A DNA stretch of 965 bases from Escherichia coli (lineage in GTDB: Bacteria > Pseudomonadota > Gammaproteobacteria > Enterobacterales > Enterobacteriaceae), in NCBI RefSeq assembly GCF_003334335.1, contig NZ_QOWQ01000134.1; one strand, given 5' to 3'. This document shows, piece after piece, positions 1 through 965 of the stretch. Every line of letters begins with the position of its first letter. Position 1 is the stretch's first letter. A program made the position numbers and the translations under genes. The notes under the pieces are model-generated. The model did not search any database. It saw nothing but the letters and a program-made list of their open reading frames with translations, and had not been told where the DNA came from.

Positions 1-965
1 GTGATTTCATTGCGGGTTTCTGTGATGGTGGTCTGCATTTCCGCCATCTCGTCCTTCAGCTGACTGTTGTCAATCTCTGCCCACAGCGCCTCTGCCAGAT
101 GCAGTTTTCCTATTTTTTCCCGAAACAGCCCCAGATACCCTTCTGCATCATTGCTGGCCCGTCCACTGGCTTCAACAAAAGCAGATTTACCCACCAGGTT
201 GACGCTGCGCACATAAAACCAGAAATCCTTTCCGGGCTTAATGTGCGGACCGGAGACACTCCACTGACTGCCGGTCCCCAGATAACGGGCAGAGGTTTCC
301 ACCTGTGCGGCGTCTGCAATTTTTGCCTCCGAAAACCAGAACTCAAACTGCACCGTCGGGTCATACACCGCAAGACGCGGGACTGCCGTTATCTGAAAAT
401 ACCCCGGCGTCAGTTCAACACCGGCAGGCGCTGCCGGTGCGTTAATCCGGAACGTGGTGGTGGCGGGTTCGCCCTGCTGGCCATAGCTGTTAATCGCCCT
501 GACCGTCAGGGTGTATTCCCCGGGAGGCAGGCCACTGAAACGGTGCTCCGTATCGGCAGTGATGGCGGTGGTCAGCAGGCGGCTGTTCTCACCGCTTCCA
601 CTGGTCAGGCGCAGACTGAAGCGCACGCCCTTCACCACCCGCGGCGTGTCCCATTTCGCCAGCGCCAGATACTGGCCGTCAGCTGCGCTCACCTCCACCG
701 TCAGGTGCTGCACTGCCGGTGGGATAACGCTGTTCAGGGTGCCTGACTGCGGCTCAAAGCGGGCTCCGTTATCCACAATGGCTTCTTTTTCCGGTACGTG
801 CTGCACTGCCGTGATGGCAAAGGTGCCGTCCGTGTTTTCCCGGATGGAGACACAGCGGAACAGGCGACGGCGCAGTGACGGCAGGGAGAGTCCCCACACC
901 CCGTATGTCTCCACACCATCAGGCAGGGTACTGACCTGTATCCGGTCCGGCGCGGGGTGTGCGGT
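1..965 (-). CDS. J: Host specificity protein J / tail tip attachment protein (lambdoid gpJ family), internal fragment, partial at both ends
   Basis: Minus-strand frame with codon boundaries at + positions 3..965 is open for all 321 codons (positions 1-2 are a partial codon). Translation N->C, reading 965->3: [321 protein letters not shown]. Long stretches match my recollection of the central part of phage lambda gpJ (e.g. [71 protein letters not shown]). The protein is not low-complexity, unlike the R/C-rich products of the track ORFs. No start or stop lies in the window, so the gene extends beyond both edges. Confidence 0.93.

Follow-up and report, generated by a model that had tools for sequence, protein, structure and literature searches.

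Comparison of the second FN3-fold domain in a J gene fragment from Escherichia coli with phage lambda gpJ

In the closed tail tip of phage lambda, the FNIII-2 domains of gpJ pack together around the axis (PMC10721106, PMC11101478), and the alpha-helical shaft (AHS; lambda residues 809-861, PMC11101478) forms a three-helix bundle below them. Upon binding to LamB, a rotation passes up the fibre, the AHS flips by ~180 degrees and partly becomes beta-sheet, and the FNIII trimer is no longer restrained (PMC11101478). In the open state, the FNIII strings have dissociated and stand at right angles to the hub, gpI and the hub domains have moved outward, and the tube measures >3 nm (PMC11101478). The baseplate hub protein pb3 of phage T5, which we compared by its published description, also has two consecutive FNIII domains after four hub domains, and in T5 as in open-state lambda the FNIII strings are separated or at right angles to the tube (PMC10721106, PMC11101478).

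Here, a 965-base stretch of E. coli DNA (the window) was compared with these systems, with a focus on a segment that an earlier note on the same DNA had described as a second, tentatively assigned FN3/Ig-like module. This segment very probably represents the greater part of FNIII-2 in a tip attachment protein J of the lambda type. The domain is an FN3-fold beta-sandwich of seven strands and ~96 residues with one short extra helix, and it would share the gate role derived from lambda. It is already known, being catalogued in Pfam and solved by cryo-EM in lambda, and the annotation is correct but ordinary. As a discovery it carries little weight, since the domain has a Pfam entry, several solved lambda structures and a wide occurrence in E. 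coli genomes; in practice it is of use for annotation and engineering, for which the exact domain limits in this J variant are provided (Table 1).

Gene and domain layout of the window

Translation of the window identified one frame that is open throughout, on the minus strand from base 965 (321 codons), and many stops in the remaining two minus-strand frames. The window is an internal piece of the gene encoding the tip attachment, or host specificity, protein J in a lambdoid phage or prophage of E. coli. At the DNA level it is 99.1% identical to J of Escherichia phage PhiR5_1, a gene that has the tail-tip genes M, L, K and I upstream and lom and tail-fibre genes downstream; it also aligns colinearly with NCBIfam NF049904 lambda_TipJ (profile positions 536-856 of 1163) and matches PHROG families of the type 'central tail fiber J'. 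These results identify the gene as J. Only 2 aa differ between the window and the PhiR5_1 J protein. Many Stx-converting and other lambdoid phages share 90-96% DNA identity with the window, which falls within a 'tail tip host specificity protein J' gene in all annotated matching records, and near-identical genes in RefSeq are named 'phage attachment tail tip protein J'. J genes of similar sequence occur in 2056 of 5426 complete E. coli genomes, most often with several prophage copies in one genome; the E. coli J copies number roughly 6700. The fragment scored 571 bits against lambda_TipJ; the curated whole-protein cut-off of 1950 bits is out of reach because the window represents 28% of the protein. 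A PDB sequence search with the window retrieved lambda gpJ chains (8iyk and others) at E 3.8e-125, colinear with lambda residues 543-837.

On the opposite strand, an ORF of 215 aa with an ATG start (99-746, plus strand) spans both FN3 domains. It was judged to be a spurious shadow ORF and rejected because its whole length is antisense to the conserved J frame. Its composition is Arg/Gly/Cys-rich, which is typical of shadow ORFs that face GC-rich genes, and a PHROG search returned no match at E <= 1.

Table 1 Features of the window with their positions, strand and basis (nt, window positions; aa, residues of the minus-strand translation).
Feature	nt	aa	Strand	Basis
Internal fragment of lambdoid gene J	3..965		-	321 codons without stop; residues 536-856 of PhiR5_1 J (1157 aa)
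End of gpJ hub region, up to lambda residue 609	747..965	1-73	-	Aligns with lambda gpJ 543-609, 74% identity
FNIII-1, lambda 610-712	441..746	74-175	-	Pfam PF24421, weak PF00041 match, seven AF2 strands
FNIII-2, full domain, lambda gpJ 713-808	153..440	176-271	-	Pfam PF24489, alignment to lambda, AF2 model
Segment of the earlier note, lambda 722-805	162..413	185-268	-	Entirely within FNIII-2
FNIII-2 strand A		182-189	-	AF2 model
FNIII-2 strand B		191-197	-	AF2 model
FNIII-2 strand C, QFEFWFS		206-212	-	AF2 model
Short helix AAQVETS between C and C'	291-311	219-225	-	AF2 model
FNIII-2 strand C'		227-232	-	AF2 model
FNIII-2 strand E		235-238	-	AF2 model
FNIII-2 strand F, DFWFYVRSV		247-255	-	AF2 model
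FNIII-2 strand G		264-271	-	AF2 model
F strand and F-G turn motif	183..227	247-261	-	Column counts, 30 homologues
Alpha-helical shaft (AHS) start, lambda 809 onward	3..152	272-321	-	AF2 helices, model residues 201-247

The domain order along the minus strand is that of a lambda-type gpJ. The hub end presumably includes the linker between HDIV and FNIII-1 that the lambda papers place at this point (order: PMC10721106). It is followed by FNIII-1, which was recognized by Pfam PF24421 'Tip attachment protein J, Ig-like domain' (Ig_J; aa 74-177, E 2.7e-41) and is a canonical FN3 domain with a strand-B Trp (W105 in AKWDTP); the monobody and FN3 matches obtained in the PDB sequence search with the window fall on this domain. 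FNIII-2 is thus placed with Ig_J directly upstream and, downstream, the helices that begin at model residue 201. The F2-pyocin tail fibre (PDB 25vf_A) matched the hub end and FNIII-1 (aa 20-160; 486-908, minus strand) at E 8e-07, and the sequence match of the F-type pyocin fibre (PDB 25vf and related entries) stops before FNIII-2. The central tail fibres of F-type pyocins are J-like.

Limits and fold of FNIII-2

Pfam PF24489 'Tip attachment protein J second Ig-like domain' (Ig_J_second) matched aa 179-280 with an E-value of 1.6e-38 (131.4 bits), covering model positions 2-103 of 105, and the domain in the window is a member of this family with no difference from it. Pairwise alignment of aa 176-271 with lambda gpJ 713-808 is gapless at 74% identity, and a PDB sequence search using the domain alone found lambda gpJ chains at E about 1e-46. 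Only gpJ chains were found in that search, the next entry (glycogen phosphorylase, E about 0.6) being noise. The limits 713-808 were derived from the start of the gpJ713 construct and from the AHS start at 809, and no explicit residue limits for FNIII-2 were found in the main texts of the lambda papers; they agree with the limits set by Pfam. The peptide of 84 residues given in the earlier note for positions 162-413, where the coding strand was left unstated, is the exact translation of the minus strand. As a delimitation of the module, the segment does lie inside FNIII-2, but the true limits are 9 residues further upstream and 3 residues further downstream; its start falls inside strand A, which omits the first part of that strand together with the conserved A-P-x-x-P linker motif, with an invariant P177 and with P180 found in 29 of 30 homologues.

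AlphaFold2 (AF2) modeling of the stretch comprising FNIII-1, FNIII-2 and the following helix (248 aa) produced two seven-stranded beta domains and then long helices (pLDDT 85.8). When modeled alone, FNIII-2 also gave a confident fold (pLDDT 94, pTM 0.85) with seven strands and one short helix, which bears out the beta-strand patterning read previously from the letters. Foldseek searches with the two-domain model returned lambda tail-tip structures first (E down to 6.5e-28), followed by the tandem FN3 pairs NCAM FN3 1-2, neogenin FN5-6 and titin A77-A78 over 200-224 columns. In the library of predicted viral structures, the best matches were 'Tip attachment protein J' proteins and phage proteins annotated as FN3. 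A Pfam scan and a structure prediction compared with lambda gpJ had been proposed in the earlier note as checks on its call; the scan identified two adjacent gpJ Ig-like families (PF24421 and PF24489), and the FNIII-2 model superimposed on the lambda structure at 1.1 Å over 101 of 102 residues. FNIII-2 is a seven-stranded beta-sandwich whose best structural neighbours are FN3 domains, and, on the evidence of the predicted model, we regard its FN3 fold assignment as firm. Together, PF24489, AF2 and the FN3 neighbours uphold a fold call that had been offered as tentative and need no longer be so.

At the level of sequence, FNIII-2 stands apart from classical FN3 domains (PF00041; neogenin, DCC, titin, fibronectin FN10), with no significant sequence match and 5-22% identity to FN3 structures. 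Pfam fn3 (PF00041) gave no match at E <= 10 in aa 176-271, and therefore FN3 membership of this domain rests on structure, not sequence. The only PF00041 match in the window, itself weak, is to FNIII-1 (aa 96-168, E 0.023), in line with the earlier description of the second module as less canonical than the upstream one, which is true at the sequence level. BLASTP found no alignment between FNIII-1 and FNIII-2 at E <= 100, and the two modules are therefore not recent duplicates. When sub-alignments of the two domains were compared using hhalign, 31 columns comprising the E-F-G motif could be aligned, with a probability of 12.7%. A forced global profile alignment (probability 9%) was used as a weak guide to strand register only.

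These results also bear on the possibility that the segment is not an independent domain and instead belongs to a larger domain or to a fold other than a beta-sandwich, either of which the earlier note had named as grounds for abandoning its reading. The domain-alone sequence searches, which find no FN3 proteins outside gpJ, the lack of BLASTP similarity to FNIII-1 and the missing Pfam fn3 match are all compatible with this possibility. Nevertheless, it has a negligible probability, as FNIII-2 folds confidently as a stand-alone unit and matches isolated FN3 domains over 82-95 residues in the structure search, and as the Pfam limits agree with the lambda limits; the recombinant lambda protein behind the 8XCJ and 8XCK fibre structures likewise starts at residue 713 (PMC11101478).

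For the analysis of conservation, homologues were collected from a representative library of 1.84 billion proteins, which yielded 641 proteins at E <= 0.001 (217 at E <= 1e-10). These were trimmed to the region, and 30 sequences extending down to 24% identity were aligned; the residue counts given for FNIII-2 refer to 30 homologues down to about 28% identity. Among the homologues are giant proteins of 1200-6600 aa (including P0053, P0059-P0061, P0075 and P0077) with 7-45 matching stretches each; these multi-FN3-repeat proteins match mostly via the FNIII-1 part, and their repeats have ~30-37% identity to J FNIII-1.

Conserved residues and the Tyr corner

The F/G motif is the most conserved part of FNIII-2 (R253, 28/30; N256, 29/30; G259 and S261, both 30/30) and follows the FN3 pattern Y-x-x-x-V-R-x-V-N-x-x-G-x-S, making it the strongest sequence link of FNIII-2 to FN3. 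A motif resembling the Tyr-corner region had been recognized here before, and the FN3 pattern is indeed present; the Tyr position itself, however, is occupied by Phe (F248; window 222-224, minus strand). The same column holds Tyr in 27 of 30 homologues, including lambda, with Phe found in the present protein and its two closest relatives. Lambda thus reads D-Y-Y-F-Y where the window encodes D-F-W-F-Y. The change to F248 is a conservative loss of the Tyr hydroxyl.

The 'conserved Trp early on' of the earlier note is W210 in FEFWF. It is conserved, being Trp in 25 of 30 homologues and Tyr or Phe in the others, but it appears to lie in strand C and not at the classical strand-B site. In the AF2 model of FNIII-1, the Trp of AKW is at the end of the second strand, which is the classical position. 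The forced, low-probability profile alignment of the two domains sets this classical Trp opposite P196 of FNIII-2 and sets FEFWF opposite the C strand of FNIII-1. Judging from this alignment and the strand order of the model, the position of the classical strand-B Trp would correspond to the invariant P196.

FNIII-2 differs from classical FN3 domains in the invariant Pro that appears to occupy the strand-B Trp site and in the extra short helix between strands C and C'. Such a helix is absent from classical FN3 domains. Given the 1.1 Å agreement, it is presumably present in the lambda structure as well. V222 and A226, in the neighbourhood of this helix, are conserved, and the conserved residues of the domain surface include E208, W210, G230 and W235. 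Overall, about 26% of residues differ between the domain in the window and lambda gpJ FNIII-2 (residues 713-808; PDB 8IYK, 8K35, 8XCI, 8XCJ/8XCK, 9E7M), among them those of the C'-E region, which is SQWSVSGPH here and LYWIAASIN in lambda.

Predicted gate function and the boundary to the helical shaft

The gating mechanism has been shown for lambda, and by homology a corresponding sequence of events may be expected here. J would form a trimer in which three copies of FNIII-1 and FNIII-2 close the exit of the tail tube. Engagement of an outer-membrane receptor by the C-terminal receptor-binding domain would send a twist up the fibre, upon which the AHS would flip and partly refold. The three FNIII strings would then part and swing sideways, with the hub domains rotating outwards and the tube opening for DNA ejection. 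In the best-supported reading, FNIII-2 of the window would be a structural, gate-forming module and not a determinant of receptor specificity, because it is 74% identical to its lambda counterpart, has the same neighbours and matches it structurally at 1.1 Å. The AHS that follows and would clamp FNIII-2 is of another sequence type than that of lambda, with about 40% identity, and the details of the latch may therefore differ.

Other functions can be envisaged for a domain of this fold. Phage Ig-like domains as a class have been proposed to adhere weakly to carbohydrates (PMC10721106), and FNIII-2 could accordingly be, mainly or additionally, a weak carbohydrate-binding adhesion module that tethers the tail tip to LPS or surface glycans before receptor binding. 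We consider this unlikely, as nothing in the present results favours it, in closed lambda FNIII-2 is packed around the axis and not displayed outward (PMC10721106, PMC11101478), the Pfam scan of the window detected no sugar-binding motif or carbohydrate-binding family, and the most conserved FNIII-2 residues form a fold-core motif. Even less probable, to a degree that leaves it little credit, is that FNIII-2 is a passive length spacer between hub and fibre with no gating role: FN3 domains do often act as spacers, but the lambda FNIIIs seal the tube and move on receptor binding (PMC11101478), and the 74% identity of FNIII-2 to lambda, while the flanking AHS is not conserved, argues for constraint beyond length.

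Apart from its predicted role in the gate, FNIII-2 marks a change in relatedness along the protein. Identity to lambda gpJ is highest at the hub end and in FNIII-2 (74% each), lower in FNIII-1 (60%) and lowest in the AHS (about 40%), which begins directly after FNIII-2. Among the aligned homologues, FN3 pairs of the lambda-like kind carry either AHS type, namely GEIGKTHLAQELW...NEI (this window) or GKITESHLGKELLEKV... (lambda). This drop in identity from 74% to about 40%, together with the occurrence of either AHS type behind lambda-like FN3 domains, suggests that the end of FNIII-2 (junction near nt 125-155) may be a module junction in the shuffling of J genes. More tentatively, and with somewhat greater doubt than belief on our part, the FNIII-2/AHS boundary (around aa 271-280) could be a preferred recombination junction in lambdoid J genes, at which a conserved hub and FN3 'gate' are joined to interchangeable distal cassettes consisting of the AHS, the straight fibre and the receptor-binding domain. 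If true, the host-range cassette would start where FNIII-2 ends, far upstream of the C-terminal region classically linked to host range. With the part from the hub to FNIII-2 conserved and the fibre beyond it exchangeable, this would also be the break point to use when chimeric J proteins are designed to change host range. Within the hub-proximal part, FNIII-1 is more diverged from lambda than either FNIII-2 or the hub end, though it is the more FN3-canonical domain by sequence.
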